In this document: piece by piece, positions 8,007 through 30,003 of the stretch
Layout: every line of letters begins with the position of its first letter
Numbering within the stretch: position 1 is the first letter of the stretch
Origin: Dehalococcoidia bacterium
GTDB lineage: Bacteria; Chloroflexota; Dehalococcoidia; Lucifugimonadales; UBA3495
Direction: 5' to 3'
Length of the DNA: 58,591 nt
NCBI GenBank assembly: GCA_021295965.1
Contig: JAGWBI010000012.1
Coordinates: 1 to 58,591, forward strand
Program-made: the position numbers and the translations under genes
Notes under the pieces: generated by a model
What the model was told of the DNA's origin: nothing
The model's database searches: none
What the model saw: only the letters and a program-made list of their open reading frames with translations

Positions 8007-8948
8007 CTACCGCAGAGAACCCGCCGGATACAGTTTCTCCCACGCCCACCGGTAGGCAATTATCGTGGGCAATTCCCGCCCATCGCCGTCCGTCCCGGTC
8101 GCCCGGATCGCGCCGGTTGTGTCGTCCCGCCAGAGCCTGACGGGAGTGTCATCGACCGTGGCATCGATTGCGCCACGCTCGATCACCGCAGGGTAGGGCC
8201 ACGCCGCCGCCTCATCGCCGATAACGATACCGACCACGTGCTGCTCGCCGGGCTGCCGGCCCCGGTAGTTCTGCGCCGGCGCGGCGGTGGTCAAAACGCG
8301 GGCGTCCGGATGCGCCACTCGCCATTGGCCCCACGTTGTCAGCTGGGATGGCATCAGTGCGAGCTCTACGCCGGCCAGCGCTCCGGCGATGGCCTGGCCG
8401 GTGGGCTGGGACCAGATGCTGCCGGTGCCGTGGTCGTACCAGGTCATCGCCCCCTTGTAGAGCGCGCCTTGGTTCCCGAGGACGAACGTGTCGTTGCCCA
8501 CGATCCGCCGGTGCGCCAGGGCGGTGTAGCACAACGGGCACCAGGTGATCAGTGTCGGAACGCCGCCAACGGTGTCGTTCACCATCTCCCGGTTGTACAG
8601 AATGCCCGCCGGGTAGGCCCTGGAATCCCCGTTGATGGTCAGGCCGATTACCAGTTCGTCGGCGGGCAGACCGGCCTCCGATGCGGGGACGAACCGGGGA
8701 TCGTAGATTGGAGCGATGGCGTCCGGGCGGCGCAACTGCTCATATTCAGCATCAACAAAGGTCGCCGCAACGGTTCCTTCAGGACCGATTATCTCGTCGG
8801 CGCCCACGAAATGATATGCGGCGGCCGGATCGGGTTGCGTCTGGGCGCGATTGACGCCAGGCGACGCGGTCGGTCTGCAGGCGGCCAATGTCACCGGCCC
8901 AAGCAAGACCGCCGCCAGGAAGAGGATTATGATTGTCCGCCCCATCAT
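8007..8948 (-). CDS. DUF3179-family lipoprotein
   Basis: Lipobox LAAC, DAIAPIYDP, SRAYP, TWCPLC, YDHGTGSIWSQ, TTWGQW..HPD. Confidence 0.85.
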   Translation of the reverse strand: MMGRTIIILFLAAVLLGPVTLAACRPTASPGVNRAQTQPDPAAAYHFVGADEIIGPEGTVAATFVDAEYEQLRRPDAIAPIYDPRFVPASEAGLPADELVIGLTINGDSRAYPAGILYNREMVNDTVGGVPTLITWCPLCYTALAHRRIVGNDTFVLGNQGALYKGAMTWYDHGTGSIWSQPTGQAIAGALAGVELALMPSQLTTWGQWRVAHPDARVLTTAAPAQNYRGRQPGEQHVVGIVIGDEAAAWPYPAVIERGAIDATVDDTPVRLWRDDTTGAIRATGTDGDGRELPTIIAYRWAWEKLYPAGSLR

Positions 8949-8980: not shown

Positions 8981-9856
8981 TCAGTCCGCCGCAACACTCG
9001 GACTCGGCGCAGTGGTCCTGCGCCTAAGGCGGGCCGCCAGCGTCCAGCGTCTCGGAGAAACGGCCACCGTCACCAGCAGCAGGCCCACCGATACGACGAC
9101 GATAGATGGGCCGGTGGGCAGGTTGAAATAGAAAGACAGGTAAAGTCCGACGACAATGGCGACCAAAGCCGAGGCCACCGTGGCCAGCATCATTCCGGTC
9201 AGGCGGGGTGCCAGCAGGCTCCCCGTGACCGCGGGAACAACCAACAGAGACATCACCATGACATTGCCCACGGTTTTGAGCGCGGCCACCGTGGTTAGCG
9301 CAACCAGCAGCGGCAGCAGGTATTCGAGGAATCGGACCGGTATGCCGGCGGCGGCGGCAACGGAGGCGTCATAGGTGGTGAAGACCAATTCCTTCCAGAA
9401 AAGACGAACCACCAGGACGACGCCCCCGGCCAAGGCTCCAACGGCCAGCACGTCGTTCCAGGAAGCGCCCAGAACGTTGCCGAAAAGGATGCTGAGCAAG
9501 TCCCCGGCGTAGTTTTTGGAGATGTTGATCATGATTACGCCCAACGCAAAGCCGCCGGCGAACAGCACGCCAATGACCGCATCCAGACGGACGCCGGCCC
9601 GGCGCGACACCAGGGATATGGCCAGGGATGCCGGGATCGCCCAGATCAGCGCGCCCAGAAAAACGTTAGCGCCGATGAGAAAGGCGGCAGCCATCCCGGT
9701 GAGAGCGGAGTGGGCGATGGCGTCGCCGAGAAAGGCCATGCCCCGCAACACGACGAAGGTGCCCACCACCCCGCACGCCGTGGCGGCAAGGGCAGACACC
9801 AGCAGCGCGCGCTGCATGAAGCCGTACTGCATAGGTTCAATGATCAGATCTAGCAT
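8981..9856 (-). CDS. Zn/Mn ABC transporter permease (ZnuB/ABC-3 family)
   Basis: FMQRAL, GTFVVLRGMAFLGDAIAHSAL, LFGNVLG, LPTGPSIV. Confidence 0.93.
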   Translation of the reverse strand: MLDLIIEPMQYGFMQRALLVSALAATACGVVGTFVVLRGMAFLGDAIAHSALTGMAAAFLIGANVFLGALIWAIPASLAISLVSRRAGVRLDAVIGVLFAGGFALGVIMINISKNYAGDLLSILFGNVLGASWNDVLAVGALAGGVVLVVRLFWKELVFTTYDASVAAAAGIPVRFLEYLLPLLVALTTVAALKTVGNVMVMSLLVVPAVTGSLLAPRLTGMMLATVASALVAIVVGLYLSFYFNLPTGPSIVVVSVGLLLVTVAVSPRRWTLAARLRRRTTAPSPSVAAD

Positions 9857-10018
9857 GGATAGACATTGTACAGGGCGTCACGGCAACCACCGGTGAAACG
9901 CCATCCGCAACTCACTTTCCGAATTTGTCTTGCCGCGCGTGCCGCCAAACAACAGTCTGCCCGTGCACCGTATGGAGAAACACGGGCGAGACAAGGCAGG
10001 TACTTGACGGCGGGACGA

Positions 10019-12382
10019 TCAGTGCGCCAATTCGGCCACGGCGTCCGCGTTGGCGCGCATCATGTCGATGTAGCCGGCTTGGGTGTCGTCAGGCATCGAA
10101 CGTAGGATGCCGATTTCAATCCCGGCGTCACGGGCAACTTGTTCCAACGCGTCGGCGGAGAATTGCGGTTCGGCGAAGACGACGGAGAGTCCCCGGTCTT
10201 CCACCAGGTCCAGCACTCGAGCGATGTCGTCTGGCGAAACCTCGCCCGCATGGGCGCCGACGAATGCCATCACCTCGAAATCGTACCGTGTTCCGAAGTA
10301 TCCGAAGGCGTCGTGGAAGGTGACAATCACGCGCCGGTCCTCGGGGATGGCGGCAAGGGTGTCGGTGATGTAGGCATCCAGGGCCTCGAGCTCGGCGATG
10401 TAGGCGGCGGCGTTGTCCAGGTAGGTCGCGGCGTGGTCCGGGTCGGCGGCGACCAGGCCGTTGGCGATCTCGTTCACGTAGTGGACGACCAGGCGGGGGT
10501 TCAGCCAGAAGTGCGGGTCGCCTTCTCCGTGTTCGTGGTCGTGGCCGTCACCGGATTCGGCTTCGCGCTCGCGGTCATCATGTCCCTCTTCGGGGTGTTC
10601 CTCCTTGTCCAGAATGCCCACGAAAGCGATCTTGGTGGGCTTTCCGTCAACATCCCAGTGGCCTATCACCTCCAGGTCGTGGGTGTCCAGGGCAAGAACT
10701 TCACCGGCGGCGGAATCGGTGATGAAGATATGGCCGGGCGCCGTCGCGATGTGGGGCCGCGCCCAGAAGCCGGGATCAATTTCGTCGCTGAGGAAACCGG
10801 AGACAGACGCCAGCAGGTCCAGGTCGTGGGCCTCGTACATCCGCAATTCCCCGTCGCTCATCATGACCAACAGGCGCTCGCCGTCGTAGCTCAGGGCCAC
10901 CTGAATGGGGCGCAGGCTCTCGGTGGCCGGGATCAACTGCTCCATTTCGCCCTCTTCCGGTTCAACCACGTAGAGGCCCACGGCGGAACCCAGGGCGAAG
11001 AAATGGTCCAAGCCATGATAGCCCCAGACGGAAGTCAGGCGGAAGTCATCGGGAGAACCTTCCGGGGCGGCGACGAATTCGTGCTCGAAATGGTCGTCGT
11101 GGGATCCGACTGCCAATACGCCGCCGGTGCAGCCGAAGGCGGCCATGTGGCCGTTGGAGGCATCGCCGTGGAGATCGGGGCAACCTTCGGCGCGATACAA
11201 CACGTTGCCATCAAGATCCCATATCTCGGCGCCGATGGGCGACCCGTACTCGCCGGGGTCATTGGCGTAATCGGGGTGTTGGATGGAGACGGCGAAAAGG
11301 TCATCTTCCAGCGGCACGGTGGCGCCATGCTGGGGACCGGCGTTGAGAACCGTGGGCGTGTAGGAAGCGCCGTCGTGCTCCAGTTCGTGCTCGTTGATCA
11401 ACACCACGTCGCCGGAACCGTCATAGAAGATCGAGGCCCACTCTCCGCCGACGTACAGATGGACGGGACGGTCGCCAGTCAGGTCAAACCCTAGTCGGCT
11501 GATGTCCGAATGCACCAGGTCGAAATGGTCGCCATGCTCTTCCAGGTAGATGCCGCCGTCGAAGATGTGGGCGGTGTTGGCGTCGCTGGAAACGGCGATG
11601 GCGTAACGTCCGCTGTAGGTTGGGTAGATGCGTCCGGCGCGAGATCCCAGGTCAAATTCACCCTGGTGCACCTCCCCTGATTCCAGCTCGATGACAGACA
11701 TCGCGCCGGTTTCGCCGTCGCCGATCAACAACCGCCCTTCCAGCTCCACGGCCGCTTCTTCGTCGCCGTGGCCATGTTCGTCGTCATGGTCTCCTTCAGG
11801 GAACGGCAATGCAACCAGTTCCTGGGGTTCCAAGCCGTCAGAGACAATCACTTGAACCGCTTCGGGAGACGCCGCGTTTTCAATGAGTTCTTCAACCGTC
11901 GAGGACAGGCCGGCGCCGTTGCTGATTACAACACTGGCTTCGGCGATTCGCACGCTGTCCTGCGGTGTGCTCTGCCAGGTATGGGCATCGCTGCCCAGCG
12001 GCACGAGGCTGCTGGCTGACACCCGATCCCCGCCGACGCGGGCCGCCAGATCGGCGAGGATTGCATTGCCGGCGACCACGTTGATGGGTTCGGCAACGGC
12101 TGCGGACGCCGGCGCGGTGGGGTTGGCCGGCGCGTTGGCCGGGGCCGCGGCGGCCGGTGCAGCGGATGATGCCGGCGCTGAGGACGCCGGCGCGGCCGCG
12201 GCAGGAGCAGCGGAGGCCGAACCTGCGGAGGACGATGTGTCGGCCGGAGGGAGCGCCGACTCTTCGCCTCCGCAGGCGGTCAAAAAGAGTGCCCCGGCCA
12301 TTAGCACAAAGACAATGGCCGCGGCTCGAAACAGGGCGAGGCGGTTGAGGTGCGGGATACCGTGGCGGTTGCGGTGGTTCAT
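10019..12382 (-). CDS. Cluster A-I metal-binding lipoprotein (ZnuA/AztC-like) with inserted AztD-like beta-propeller domain
   Basis: Lipobox LTAC. SBP motifs DAHTW, NGAGL, DPHFWLNP, HDAFGYF, FAEPQF are split by about 380 aa containing HGDH, PVH, QHGA and CPDLHGDA. Start at ATG 12382 after GGAG. Confidence 0.85.
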   Translation of the reverse strand: MNHRNRHGIPHLNRLALFRAAAIVFVLMAGALFLTACGGEESALPPADTSSSAGSASAAPAAAAPASSAPASSAAPAAAAPANAPANPTAPASAAVAEPINVVAGNAILADLAARVGGDRVSASSLVPLGSDAHTWQSTPQDSVRIAEASVVISNGAGLSSTVEELIENAASPEAVQVIVSDGLEPQELVALPFPEGDHDDEHGHGDEEAAVELEGRLLIGDGETGAMSVIELESGEVHQGEFDLGSRAGRIYPTYSGRYAIAVSSDANTAHIFDGGIYLEEHGDHFDLVHSDISRLGFDLTGDRPVHLYVGGEWASIFYDGSGDVVLINEHELEHDGASYTPTVLNAGPQHGATVPLEDDLFAVSIQHPDYANDPGEYGSPIGAEIWDLDGNVLYRAEGCPDLHGDASNGHMAAFGCTGGVLAVGSHDDHFEHEFVAAPEGSPDDFRLTSVWGYHGLDHFFALGSAVGLYVVEPEEGEMEQLIPATESLRPIQVALSYDGERLLVMMSDGELRMYEAHDLDLLASVSGFLSDEIDPGFWARPHIATAPGHIFITDSAAGEVLALDTHDLEVIGHWDVDGKPTKIAFVGILDKEEHPEEGHDDREREAESGDGHDHEHGEGDPHFWLNPRLVVHYVNEIANGLVAADPDHAATYLDNAAAYIAELEALDAYITDTLAAIPEDRRVIVTFHDAFGYFGTRYDFEVMAFVGAHAGEVSPDDIARVLDLVEDRGLSVVFAEPQFSADALEQVARDAGIEIGILRSMPDDTQAGYIDMMRANADAVAELAH

Positions 12383-12466
12383 TTGGCGTACTCCGTGGGT
12401 GCGGCTTGGCTTTGAACAGGGCTCTAACACTGGGTATCTGATGGCAGTATCAACAAAATTGATTAC

Positions 12467-12511
12467 AGATATTACGTATCAATAACCACGACTTAAAGAT
12501 ATCGAGTATCA
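12467..12511. promoter_or_regulatory. Two candidate Fur/Zur-family boxes (GATA-N5-TATC)
   Basis: AGATATTACGTATCA (12467-12481) and AGATATCGAGTATCA (12497-12511), 30 bp apart, in the AT-rich region upstream of the SBP. Confidence 0.55.
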
Positions 12512-12545
12512 ATTGAGCGGCAAAAAAATAACGAGCGGCGTGTCC

Positions 12546-13013
12546 TCAGGTAGAGGAACACTCGCCGCAGCGGCCATACACCTCGAGCCAGTGACCGCTC
12601 ATGTGGAACCCCGCCGCCGCCGCCGCTTCGCGCAAAGCGTCTTCCACATCACATCCGGTAAGGTCGGTGGACGCGCCGCAGACCGCGCAGAGCATATGAT
12701 GATGATGTCCCTGGTGGCTCAACTGATACCTGAGCTCTCGATCTTCAAGGAGCACGCGGCAAACCAGGTCGGTTTCGACCAGCAATCGCAACCCCCGGTA
12801 CACCGTGGCCCGACCCACGCAAGGCAGGGCAGCGCACAGTTCTTCGGCCGTAAAGGGCCGACCCTGAGCCGCGGCCGCGCTGATAACCAGCCGGCGCGGT
12901 TCGGTGTCCCGGTAGCCCAGGTCAGCCAGCTGGGAAACGATGTCGTCCACTACGGCTGCGGAACGGGGCCGGGGATGGTCATGGCCTTTATGACGAGTGT
13001 TTGTCGCAAGCAA
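12546..13013 (-). CDS. Fur-family transcriptional regulator (probably Zur)
   Basis: RATVYRGL, HHHHMLCAVCG, HWLEVYGRCGEC. Adjacent to the metal ABC genes. Start codon uncertain. Confidence 0.9.
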   Translation of the reverse strand: MLATNTRHKGHDHPRPRSAAVVDDIVSQLADLGYRDTEPRRLVISAAAAQGRPFTAEELCAALPCVGRATVYRGLRLLVETDLVCRVLLEDRELRYQLSHQGHHHHMLCAVCGASTDLTGCDVEDALREAAAAAGFHMSGHWLEVYGRCGECSST

Positions 13014-13031: not shown

Positions 13032-13137
13032 CTAATGTAGTGCGCAGCGTTTGTTTTGTCAACCCGTCGTTCTTCGACACGTCCGTACGGTTTGGTGGAT
13101 CTCCCGAGTGGGCAAACCTTTCGGCGACGAGCCTTCC

Positions 13138-13146
13138 TGCTATAAT
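13138..13146 (+). promoter_or_regulatory. Extended -10 promoter of the ASST gene
   Basis: TGCTATAAT about 35 nt upstream of ATG 13180. Confidence 0.55.
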
Positions 13147-13179
13147 CGCGCCGCAACCTGCTCTTGCGGAGGGACACTG

Positions 13180-14307
13180 ATGGGCTGGTCGATTCATCAT
13201 CCGGTGGGGCTAATCCACCACACGCCGGCGGCGTGCCAGATGGGCTACACGCTGTTCTCCACCACCCGGGGAGGCAAGGACGCCTACCTGATCGACATGA
13301 ACGGCAACGTCGTTCACCGCTGGCATTCCGAAGAGGGCATCCACTACGCCTACCTGCTGGACAACGGCAACCTGCTGTGCCGCACCTTCCCGCCCGAAAA
13401 CGCCGGCGGATATGAAACGATCGGCGGATCATCGGGTAGCGTCATCGAACTGGACTGGAACAGCAACCTGGTGTGGGCCTACCGCGACCCTACTCTGCAC
13501 CACGACTACGAGCGCCTGGCCAACGGCAACACCCTGTTGCTGATGTGGGACCCCCTGCCCGACGGGCTGGCGGCCCAGGTACAGGGCGGTTTCGAGGTTG
13601 ACTTCGCCCTGGGCATGGTGGGCGACGTGGTGCGCGAGGTTACGCCCGACGGCACGACGGTGTGGGAGTGGCGCTCCTGGGAGCACCTGGATCTCGCCGA
13701 GGACGTAATCTGTCCGCTGGAACCCCGCCGTGAATGGACTCACGGCAACAGCCTGAACGTCACTCCCGACGGCGACCTGATCGTGAGCTATCGGCTGACC
13801 AGCACCGTTGGCATCGTGGATCGGGCCACCGGAGCCTTCAAGTGGAAGTGGGGGCCGGGCGAAATTTACCACCAGCATCATCCCACCTGGCTGGACAGCG
13901 GGCGCATCCTGATTTTCGACAATGGCGGCCACCGACGAGGCGCCAGCTACTCCCGCATCGTGGAGGTTGACCCCGCCACCAACGAGATCCACTGGCAGTA
14001 CCAGGGAATGCCGGCAATATCCTTCTACAGCTACAACATCAGCAGCGCCGAGCGCCAGCCCAACGGCAACACCCTGATCTGCGAGGGCGCGCCGGGCCGG
14101 ATGTTCGAAGTCACTCCCCGGGGCGAAGTTGTGTGGGAGTACATCAACCCCTTCTTCCACTACAGCGAGGCAGCCGGCGGCGCCGGCGGCATGGAGTACA
14201 CCAACGCCACTTTCCGCTGCCACCGTTACGCTCCCGACCACCCAGCCCTGGCCGGCCGCGACCTGGATCCGGGCCGGCACTCGGGGCTGAACCGGTTGCT
14301 GAGGTGA
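13180..14307 (+). CDS. Aryl-sulfate sulfotransferase (ASST)-like beta-propeller protein
   Basis: LIDMNGNVVHRW, HHDYERLANGN, WTHGNS, QHHP, IFDNG, SSAERQPNGNTLICEG. GGAGG RBS. Confidence 0.85.
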   Translation: MGWSIHHPVGLIHHTPAACQMGYTLFSTTRGGKDAYLIDMNGNVVHRWHSEEGIHYAYLLDNGNLLCRTFPPENAGGYETIGGSSGSVIELDWNSNLVWAYRDPTLHHDYERLANGNTLLLMWDPLPDGLAAQVQGGFEVDFALGMVGDVVREVTPDGTTVWEWRSWEHLDLAEDVICPLEPRREWTHGNSLNVTPDGDLIVSYRLTSTVGIVDRATGAFKWKWGPGEIYHQHHPTWLDSGRILIFDNGGHRRGASYSRIVEVDPATNEIHWQYQGMPAISFYSYNISSAERQPNGNTLICEGAPGRMFEVTPRGEVVWEYINPFFHYSEAAGGAGGMEYTNATFRCHRYAPDHPALAGRDLDPGRHSGLNRLLR

Positions 14308-14585: not shown

Positions 14586-18109
<3,524 letters not shown>

Positions 18110-29175: not shown

Positions 29176-30003
29176 CTAACCCCGCCGCTCCAGGTTCCTG
29201 ATCGCCTCGTCGATGCGGCGTACCTGCTCGGCGTCGCCGGACGAGAGGCGGTAGCAGCGGTCCAGGTACAGTTGAGCCAGCTGCGCTCCGTTGGCGCTGG
29301 TATCCCCGGCGGCGTGCACCAGGGAGCCGATGCTGAACGCCTCGGGCAGGTGACGCCCCAGGGCTGTCATCTCCGCGATGATCTCGTCGATGGCAGAGGT
29401 ATCGTTGCCTTCCTGGGCGAAGCGCAGCCGGCCGAGCAGCCGCCCCATTTCGGCCAGTCGGTCGCCCTCGCTCATAAAGCTCCACAGTACCTCGTTGACG
29501 CCCAACCCGCCGGTATCAACCTCCCGGTCACCACCTCCCCCGGCCAGCAGACCAGAAACGGTTTCCGGCAGGGCTGCGTCATCGGCAGGGACGGATGCGG
29601 CGCCTCCGTCGGTGTCGGCCTGAGAGCAGGCATCGGAGTATTCTTGCACCGCTTGGGCCACGGATTCCATCATGCGCGCCAAATCATAGGAGAACATGTT
29701 GCCGCCATACACCAGGTCGTCGCCACGCCGGTTGGCGAGGCGCACCAGGTGGTCGTACCCGCCCTCCACCAACTCCGACATGGGGGGCATGGCGAAGGCA
29801 GAGAAATTGGCCAGCGGGCCCGATCCGCCGCTGCCCAAATGAGCGGCCAGGAACGGGGGCACGTACTTGGTCAGGTCGGCGGTGATAGGCAACGTGATGA
29901 TGTAGGTCCCATACACGCTGTCGGGCTCGGTATCAACACGGAAATATAGCAGCGCGTGTCCCCGAGGTCGTTGGGGATCACCGATTTCAAACTGGAGGTC
30001 CAT
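29176..30003 (-). CDS. Hypothetical protein
   Basis: 275-aa ORF with host-like codon use, divergent from comM. No family recognised. Confidence 0.75.
   Translation of the reverse strand: MDLQFEIGDPQRPRGHALLYFRVDTEPDSVYGTYIITLPITADLTKYVPPFLAAHLGSGGSGPLANFSAFAMPPMSELVEGGYDHLVRLANRRGDDLVYGGNMFSYDLARMMESVAQAVQEYSDACSQADTDGGAASVPADDAALPETVSGLLAGGGGDREVDTGGLGVNEVLWSFMSEGDRLAEMGRLLGRLRFAQEGNDTSAIDEIIAEMTALGRHLPEAFSIGSLVHAAGDTSANGAQLAQLYLDRCYRLSSGDAEQVRRIDEAIRNLERRG

Follow-up and report, generated by a model that had tools for sequence, protein, structure and literature searches.

Can a complete zinc chaperone be housed inside a loop of the very protein to which its zinc would be delivered? This question is raised by a gene at 10019..12382 on the minus strand of contig JAGWBI010000012.1 (NCBI GenBank assembly GCA_021295965.1), which comes from a Dehalococcoidia bacterium of the phylum Chloroflexota. 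The contig was analyzed as one stretch of 58,591 nucleotides, referred to here as the window. An earlier note, made from the letters of the window alone, had described the gene product as a lipoprotein of roughly 790 residues in which a substrate-binding protein (SBP) of the cluster A-I type is interrupted at its His-rich loop by an AztD-like metallochaperone. The observation is confirmed: an AztC/ZnuA-type SBP is split by a complete AztD propeller located in its loop. The protein is quite probably the substrate-binding lipoprotein of an ATP-binding cassette (ABC) importer for zinc, with the AztC-type D-loop replaced by the whole AztD chaperone.

Architecture of the fusion protein

How is the protein built? 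The open reading frame (ORF) extends over 10019..12430 (-) and encodes 803 aa from a GTG start, with no internal stops and the stop codon at 10019-10021. An ATG at 12382 (residue 17), which has a GGAG motif 8 nt upstream, gives 787 aa. This length agrees with the one first proposed and is close to the 789 aa of the nearest relative found in a protein homologue search. Residue numbers are counted throughout from the GTG at 12430. The translation begins with a predicted signal peptide (12272..12382) that carries the lipobox L-T-A-C, with its Cys at residue 53, and continues as an Ala/Pro/Ser low-complexity stalk of about 60 aa (residues 54-113; 12092..12271). The N-lobe of the SBP follows (residues 114-208; 11807..12091), delimited by Pfam and PDB matches, the AlphaFold2 (AF2) model and conservation. 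It contains the first metal-binding histidine, H150, in the motif DAHTW.

The insert comes next. A His/Asp/Glu-rich linker on the N-side (residues 209-229; 11744..11806), which varies in length and is His-rich among relatives, leads into a beta-rich AztD-type beta-propeller of 378 residues (residues 230-607; 10610..11743). A second His-rich linker (residues 608-637; 10520..10609) leads out of it and ends with H632-x-H634-G-x-x directly before DPHFW. The remainder (residues 638-803; 10022..10519) comprises a long interdomain helix and the C-lobe of the SBP, with H640 in DPHFW, H706 in FHDAF, and E754. The earlier note had placed the insert at about 10610-11750 between two His/acid-rich linkers. 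The derived propeller core falls at that position, and both linkers are present and predicted to be disordered. All of the motifs quoted in the note were found as well (DAHTW, NGAGL, DPHFWLNP, HDAFGYF and FAEPQF; GDHDDEHGHGDEE and EEHPEEGHDD...GHDHEHGEG; HGDH, PVH, QHGA and CPDLHGDA..FGC).

The flanks were identified as one SBP by sequence and by fold. The Pfam family ZnuA (PF01297) matched them in two stretches (E 3.8e-75; 253.2 bits vs a cut-off of 29). Their best solved relatives are structures of Paracoccus denitrificans AztC, 5kzj (E 1.3e-39) and 5w56 (E 1.1e-38). In the latter alignment, residues 113-204 pair with chain positions 1-91 and residues 634-800 with chain positions 109-281. 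Because the alignment is split in this way, the 430 intervening residues occupy the site of the 17-residue flexible loop of AztC. The short AztC-type D-loop with its three histidines is absent, and linker, propeller and linker stand in its place; the His-rich linkers may substitute for the loop histidines. The NCBIfam model for AdcA (NF033605) matched the SBP part only, with 86.6 bits vs a cut-off of 700.

The insert was identified as AztD by the same means. The NCBIfam AztD model (NF038015) matched with E 5.1e-34 and was covered from position 3 to 354 of its 356 positions. Residues 216-605 matched the solved AztD of P. denitrificans (6ck1; E 2.3e-28), and the AztD of Citrobacter koseri (6cmk) matched with E 5.6e-25. 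According to the AztD paper (PMC6689063), the AztD fold is an 8-bladed beta-propeller.

An AF2 model of residues 110-803, built from an alignment of 55 fused relatives, has a mean predicted local distance difference test (pLDDT) score of 85.9. Scores below 50 are confined to the two linkers, on the N-side at model residues 100-118. Helices at model residues 536-553 and 555-584 form the long interdomain helix between two alpha/beta lobes. When the model was searched against the PDB with Foldseek, the nine best hits were all AztD chains (6cmk, 6ck1 and 6n01), with E-values of 3e-30 to 2e-27, template modeling (TM) scores of 0.83-0.85 normalized to the target, and root-mean-square deviations of 2.9-3.6 A. 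The tenth hit was holo AztC (5w57; E 3e-14, target TM 0.83), aligned over 696 columns across both lobes, and the structure 8svc gave a target TM of 0.84 to the two-lobe SBP fold. The insert thus stands as AztD-like on sequence, fold and His ligands, and the flanks jointly form one cluster A-I SBP, as had been proposed. A three-chain complex prediction (N-lobe, C-lobe and propeller, from the fused alignment) scored 0.02 vs a mark of 0.32 and counts neither way.

Conservation of the metal sites

Are the metal ligands of both modules retained? In the SBP, the histidines H150, H640 and H706 are kept in 55/55 fused proteins. H632 and H634 are kept in 55/55 as well, so that the C-side linker always ends in H-x-H-G-x-x-D-P-H-F-W. 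The third SBP ligand is a histidine. Mn/Fe-type SBPs carry Glu at this position. The aspartate ligand of AztC (Asp279) is missing. The 55 aligned fusions sort into three tiers (a, b and c), and the position falls in a 4-residue deletion in the query and the other 24 tier-a members (25/25) and is Gly in all 30 members of tiers b and c. A tie between this loss and the fusion was considered and rejected: 8 of 17 cluster representatives of at least 650 aa with C-lobe coverage keep the Asp, and propeller-less relatives of the tier-c scaffold also carry Gly. By these comparisons, the absence of the ligand belongs to the scaffold lineage, not to the fusion. According to a published introduction, the zinc-specific coordination in groups I and II of cluster A-I consists of three histidines together with Glu or water. 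The His3 site without a carboxylate corresponds to this type.

For the propeller, ligand equivalence was established by a HMMER alignment to 6ck1, counted in the numbering of P. denitrificans AztD (PdAztD) and compared with the published ligand list. In the AztD paper (PMC6689063), PdAztD site 1 consists of H124, H167 and H218; site 2 consists of H99, H102 and D104 together with the C-terminal H408, which is kept in 68.1% of AztD homologues; and a disulfide joins C214 to C231. The site 1 equivalents in the fusion are H324, H368 and H421, each kept in 54/55 fused proteins. The site 2 equivalents lie in H299-G300-D-H302-F-D304, and the pattern H-G-x-H-x-D is kept in 55/55. C417 and C434 are also kept in 55/55, with a 17-residue spacing equal to that of Cys214 and Cys231; by sequence, they appear to match the conserved disulfide pair of AztD. 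Most members, the query among them, have a D/E-H only a few residues past the last strand, although sequence cannot fix its equivalence to H408. It is absent in a few members (e.g., the second genes of loci L051 and L052, and L056 and L070).

The paper also reports that site 2 of free AztD sits on an extension of the N- and C-terminal strands, that zinc passes to AztC from this site, and that the role of site 1 is unsettled even in free AztD (PMC6689063). Free AztD proteins are described as bearing His-rich tails at their ends, and the His/acid-rich linkers that flank the insert resemble these tails.

Distribution of the fusion

How widespread is this architecture? With a limit of E<=1e-10, the protein search returned 589 homologues, of which the best 120 cover 98-100% of the query, are 680-815 aa long and share 71-97% identity with it. 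Chance is excluded as the source of the likeness by the E-values and by the number of homologues. A scan of species-representative genomes gave 80 loci. At 66 loci, the N-lobe, AztD and C-lobe are colinear in one ORF (three of these loci hold two fused genes). Another 4 loci are colinear with the gene split or cut by a contig end, and 10 have AztD outside an SBP. All 70 colinear loci are in records labeled Dehalococcoidia, Chloroflexota/Chloroflexi or SAR202, many of which are single chromosomes of 2-4.7 Mb. Two related loci, L036 (3881-6335) and L037 (5818-8241), present the fused gene as two overlapping or adjacent ORFs; the cause could be a frameshift, decay to a pseudogene or faulty assembly.

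Of 301 genomes sampled evenly across the class, 37 matched at E<=1e-60, as did 33 of the 222 high-quality ones; the figure of 37 comes from a stricter first look and is a lower bound. The matches are concentrated in a few families (e.g., 12 of 17 and 10 of 17 genomes). Among 1.84 billion representatives of clusters at 50% identity, 597 score E<=1e-30. Fused proteins of at least 650 aa make up 15 of the best 150 cluster representatives after a coverage filter. In the genome of the window (3.23 Mb; 86.6% complete), the fusion is the only ZnuA-family match and the only AztD match.

The gene was also recovered from public sequencing data. All or part of the stretch is contained in seventeen runs, which come from eight studies, and one of these runs may be the source of the window DNA. 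No RNA data set was among the runs listed. In one run from another study (X2), a single contig of 3132 nt aligns to 9900-12016 without gaps and with 7 differences, and both junctions of the insert are spanned. In another (X6), two contigs bridge one junction each.

Gene neighborhood and regulation

What genes accompany the fusion? On the same strand, the order is a Fur-family gene, the fusion gene, an ABC-3 permease gene and a DUF3179 lipoprotein gene. The regulator gene (12546..13013, -; PF01475, E 4.1e-19) is directly upstream of the fusion and encodes a putative Zur. The regulator is probably Zur on the strength of its gene context. The permease gene (8981..9856, -; PF00950, E 1e-68) has AztB as its best NCBIfam match. 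The last gene of the apparent operon (8007..8948, -; PF11376, E 1.7e-52) encodes a DUF3179 lipoprotein with the lipobox L-A-A-C and a W-C-P-L-C motif, which has no NCBIfam match and may be an unrecognized accessory of metal uptake.

Of the 70 colinear loci, 46 have a Fur-like gene, 26 have a permease gene, and 14 have a DUF3179 gene that follows the permease. Judged by record name, eleven genome records have two loci each, mostly one with a permease and another with only the regulator and the fusion. In more distant relatives (L057), an ATPase gene lies between the fusion and permease genes. The sole ZnuC/AztA-like ATPase in the genome of the window is encoded on contig C16 (7655-8347, -; also locus L084, 1420-2310, -), away from the operon. 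Its two termini carry His-rich tails, HAGHGHAHLRHGQSHTHD... and ...HHHDH, and its gene sits between a gene resembling short-chain dehydrogenases/reductases and a glyoxalase-like gene, both named by eye.

A candidate operator was found between the regulator and fusion genes. Three TTGATAC boxes are spaced 29-30 nt apart at 12447..12512 (-), and two of the three fit GATA-N5-TATC. At least one such box is present in 30 of 33 equivalent intergenic regions. The heptamer occurs 9 times in the window vs 2.66 expected, and none of 100 shuffles reached 9. Six of these occurrences lie outside the operator region, and those at 29513 and 29930 fall within long open frames. A scan of two intergenic regions for inverted repeats found none between the regulator and fusion genes. 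The Fur-family protein probably controls the fusion via the TTGATAC boxes.

Other features of the region were recorded. An arylsulfotransferase (ASST)-like beta-propeller gene (13051-14307, +) is divergent from the regulator and is kept beside the operon at 92-94% identity in the four closest loci (L004, L005, L006 and L034). A thiamine pyrophosphate (TPP) riboswitch (RF00059; 14384-14498, +; 61.4 bits vs a gathering threshold of 54.3) shortly precedes a gene of the sodium:solute symporter family (ORF 14586-16100, +), whose product may transport thiamine or a thiamine precursor. A cytochrome P450 gene (6544-7773, -; PF00067, E 2.2e-29) is directly downstream of the operon.

Separate histories of insert and scaffold

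Did the fusion arise once? The three tiers of fused proteins differ in how the two modules are related. Between tiers a and b, mean identity is 0.37 for the SBP lobes and 0.70 for the propeller. Between tiers b and c, it is 0.58 for the lobes and 0.37 for the propeller, and between tiers a and c it is 0.35 and 0.37, respectively. Tier-b proteins thus combine a tier-c-like scaffold (58% lobe identity) with a tier-a-like propeller (70% propeller identity).

This pattern was examined with domain trees (IQ-TREE, LG+C20+F+G4, quick search), in which each tested group was drawn from the tree of the other data set. The lobe tree groups two proteins of tier b with six of tier c in one clade with full support. 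In the propeller tree, tiers b and c are separate and each is fully supported. By the approximately unbiased (AU) test, the propeller data reject the clade of the lobe tree (log-likelihood difference 699.9, p-AU 8e-66), and the lobe data reject tier b as one clade (difference 102.3, p-AU 1e-4). A single fusion origin with unequal domain rates is rejected for tier b by these tests, which do not depend on the root. The insert and the scaffold thus have different histories.

Broader sampling of the scaffold extends this pattern. In a FastTree phylogeny that includes cluster representatives, fused and standalone SBPs interleave (e.g., P0130 with 815 aa and P0253 with 321 aa, support 1.0). Rows in this tree have at least 80% coverage of the chosen columns, and three mis-aligned rows from Binatia and Thermodesulfobacteriota were ignored. 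On a scaffold tree of 170 rows (70 fused, 79 standalone and 21 unscored), at least 15 changes in the presence of the insert are counted. This count is read from a FastTree topology in which added rows were aligned with the keeplength option, representatives were picked by their likeness to the query, and 38 rows were dropped for poor lobe coverage.

Several individual proteins stand out. P0124 (1216 aa) carries two nearly identical AztD propellers in tandem inside the SBP loop. The same two-part match is given by an open frame of 1227 aa (G142:C1:447790-451299, -) whose genome belongs to the window's own order. P0280 (L067, 8511-9869, +) is a tandem paralogue of a fused gene, and its loop consists only of about 95 aa of His/Asp/Glu repeats. 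Since its lobes nest among fused scaffolds, P0280 may be the product of propeller loss.

AztD cassettes that are 66-71% identical also occur outside this phylum, in surface proteins of 925-1165 aa without an SBP from Binatia, Thermodesulfobacteriota and Pedosphaera (L047, 5257-8034; L049, 4855-8190; L050, 4960-8115; L048, 3904-7401). These cassettes are flanked by similar His-rich tracts, a Fur-like gene adjoins three of the four, and one of the proteins has choice-of-anchor M and TIGR03773 domains. On sequence, this looks like cassette exchange between phyla. Three records from Poribacteria (L079-L081) show yet another arrangement: an SBP gene of 317-321 aa lies a few kb from a gene for a protein of 784-791 aa with an N-terminal AztD and a long C-terminal extension, which is a third way of anchoring AztD.

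Given the conflicting trees, the at least 15 changes, the tandem propellers, the propeller-less paralogue and the cassettes in other phyla, the balance tilts slightly toward the His-rich loop of the SBP being a hot spot for exchangeable AztD cassettes that are gained, lost, swapped, duplicated and shared across phyla. The fusion would then have arisen or been rebuilt many times. That the exchange proceeds by recombination in the repetitive linker-coding DNA is a guess. A search of the query gene for long direct DNA repeats between its two linker-coding stretches found only short, weak families, and the gene therefore lends this idea no support.

Proposed function and its alternatives

What would such a protein do? 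The architecture, fold, ligand conservation, neighborhood and distribution described above are matters of observation. Building on them, we infer that the metal is zinc, in which direction and by which route it is transferred, and how the gene is regulated. The propeller is attached by two His-rich tethers, predicted to be disordered and about 20 and about 30 residues long. Its terminal strands, which carry zinc site 2 in free AztD, lead straight into the two SBP lobes. Zn(II) would be collected by the His-rich tethers and by site 2 (H299, H302 and D304). With site 2 tied beside the SBP cleft, zinc could then be passed within the chain to the His3 site (H150, H640 and H706), with the invariant H632-x-H634 before DPHFW as a possible stepping stone. 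The loaded SBP would dock on the adjacent AztB-like permease, and a ZnuC/AztA-like ATPase from another part of the genome would supply the permease with energy. The Fur-family repressor, probably Zur, would act through the TTGATAC boxes.

Why would the two proteins be joined? Chloroflexota have a single membrane, and the lack of a periplasm is a plausible reason for the fusion. This reason is insufficient alone, since lipidation can by itself retain a free chaperone; AztD homologues of Gram-positive bacteria appear to be lipoproteins, according to the AztD paper (PMC6689063). Another advantage is therefore needed. In the published work on the free system, the AztC loop and its three histidines are essential, and formation of the complex between AztD and AztC is slow and rate-limiting. 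A tether would make this encounter intramolecular and remove the slow step of the free pair. By analogy with that pair, removal of the slow encounter would be the likeliest advantage of the fusion.

Several observations weigh against a zinc-delivering fusion of this kind. The profile scores are below the equivalog cut-offs for AztD (117.6 bits vs 400), for AztC (NF040870; 196.3 bits in two stretches vs 350, with the profile interrupted by the insert) and, in the permease, for AztB (204.2 bits vs 280). The MntC (Deinococcus-type) model, at 165.8 bits, is near the AztC score. With Asp279 deleted or replaced by Gly, the SBP site is not an AztC site of three histidines plus Asp. The regulator (Fur 55.7, PerR 53.5 and Zur 37.2 bits, all far below the cut-offs) is not separable from Fur or PerR by profile score. 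The operon is without an ATPase gene, and the pairing with the ATPase of contig C16 is an assumption; this ATPase scores 221.2 bits with MntA (manganese), 197.7 with a Mn/Fe ATPase and 174.4 with AztA. The mutual placement of SBP and propeller is not confidently predicted (predicted TM score, pTM, 0.59). In the published docking model, the AztC loop threads into the propeller pore. A hand-off of this kind cannot work as drawn, since the propeller now takes the place of that loop. Finally, three joints were each seen in a single contig of the public data. They skip 422, 531 and 276 nt, and their shorter side is only 21-35 letters long. The insert is excised by none of them, and they are taken as coming from paralogues or other organisms.

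Could the same architecture serve another metal? Manganese, iron or another divalent metal might be imported, with the propeller as its chaperone. The closeness of the MntC and AztC scores, the preference of the unlinked ATPase for manganese-type models and the generic Fur-family character of the regulator would fit this, and a review has TroA (group III, like AztC) possibly binding Mn and Fe. The ligands speak for zinc instead: all three in the SBP are His in 55/55 proteins, the carboxylate Asp position is deleted or Gly in favor of the coordination described as zinc-specific, and both zinc sites of AztD are conserved. AztD has been characterized solely as a zinc chaperone in the published work used here. 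The zinc-type signs also include AztC as the best SBP match and AztB as the best permease match. Import of a different metal is accordingly improbable in our estimate.

The role of the propeller could also differ while the metal stays the same. It might be a surface buffer or store of zinc, or a scavenger for other acceptors, with the fusion serving mainly for anchoring and 1:1 co-expression. The many paralogous loci with a Fur-like gene and a fusion gene but no permease (present at only 26 of the 70) are in keeping with storage. So are the pore site 1, which is as conserved as site 2 and whose role in free AztD is described as unsettled, the cassettes in surface proteins that have no SBP at all, and the uncertain domain arrangement in the model. 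Yet the insertion point in the 66 loci is always the loop that mediates transfer from AztD to AztC in the free system, and through the invariant H-x-H-G-x-x-DPHFW the C-side tether runs directly into an SBP ligand. For anchoring, an end-to-end fusion or lipidation would suffice. A storage role is given a small share of the probability, comparable to that of another metal.

The weakest alternative, a mis-assembly (including the chimeric assembly that the earlier note had itself raised) or a read-through of two or three genes, could appeal to a genome that is an 86-contig bin with 5.89% contamination and to the frame being split into two ORFs at L036 and L037, but it retains next to no chance against one uninterrupted frame, the best 120 of 589 homologues spanning nearly the whole query, the same layout at 66 loci, and contigs from other studies that cover the junctions, one of them gap-free. 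The most likely function is capture of zinc and its delivery within a single chain, from an inserted AztD to the SBP that surrounds it.

Novelty and significance

The component parts are known, and the nesting of AztD inside an SBP loop is not known to have been described. No description of an AztD-in-SBP fusion was found in the literature searched, a search that did not extend to the supplements of PMC6689063 (577 AztD homologues). Also new here are the differing histories of insert and scaffold, the at least 15 changes in the presence of the insert, the relative with two propellers, and the unlinked ATPase.

The hand-off from AztD to AztC is one of the few protein-to-protein zinc transfers that have been studied mechanistically. 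The transfer complex is transient and is known only from a docking model, according to the published work. A natural single chain fixes donor and acceptor at 1:1 and could make it possible to trap a transfer-competent state and to determine how fast zinc moves within the chain. Its existence also means that loop-into-pore docking is not the sole workable geometry.

In many Dehalococcoidia and SAR202 genomes, including some labeled as coming from sponge metagenomes, the main or sole ZnuA-type receptor belongs to the fusion family. The fusion is probably the zinc acquisition route of an abundant marine group. Moreover, the cassette-like insert is a clear natural case of domain insertion into the loop of a binding protein. 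Protein engineers use domain insertion in binding-protein loops for biosensors.

Comparison with known systems

How does the fusion compare with systems that have been described? The closest is the AztABCD system of P. denitrificans (AztC, 5w56/5w57; AztD, 6ck1), with C. koseri AztD (6cmk, 6n01) as a further solved member. The same two modules are present by sequence and fold. Site 1, site 2 and the disulfide pair of AztD are common to both, and a Fur-family regulator and an AztB-like permease are encoded alongside, as in the window. The differences lie in the connections. Here there is one polypeptide, in which the propeller and its His-rich tails replace the 17-residue AztC loop, and the docking of loop into pore is topologically impossible as drawn. 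The Asp279 ligand of AztC is missing, the ATPase is unlinked, and all NCBIfam scores are under the equivalog cut-offs. Because it scores below both cut-offs and is without the Asp ligand and the loop, the fusion is filed as working like AztC plus AztD and as a member of neither equivalog.

ZnuA proteins whose His-rich loop is long, whether or not free ZinT accompanies them, share the His3 site without Asp and a flexible His-rich element at the loop position. The paralogue P0280 has only its His/Asp/Glu tract at that position. In contrast to ZnuA, the fusion has a folded propeller of 380 aa in its loop, which adds two metal sites. The anchored-repeat ABC SBP (TIGR03772) and the AztD surface proteins of Binatia, Pedosphaera and Thermodesulfobacteriota likewise add further extracellular domains to an AztD module or to a metal SBP. 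In those surface proteins, however, AztD is joined end-to-end with other domains (choice-of-anchor M, TIGR03773) and is not nested in an SBP loop.

AdcA of streptococci is also a lipoprotein SBP covalently joined to a zinc-recruiting accessory domain. Its accessory domain is ZinT, appended at the C-terminus, whereas in the fusion it is AztD, inserted in the loop. AdcA, with its end-appended ZinT, is the nearest precedent for the principle of joining an SBP to its accessory domain.

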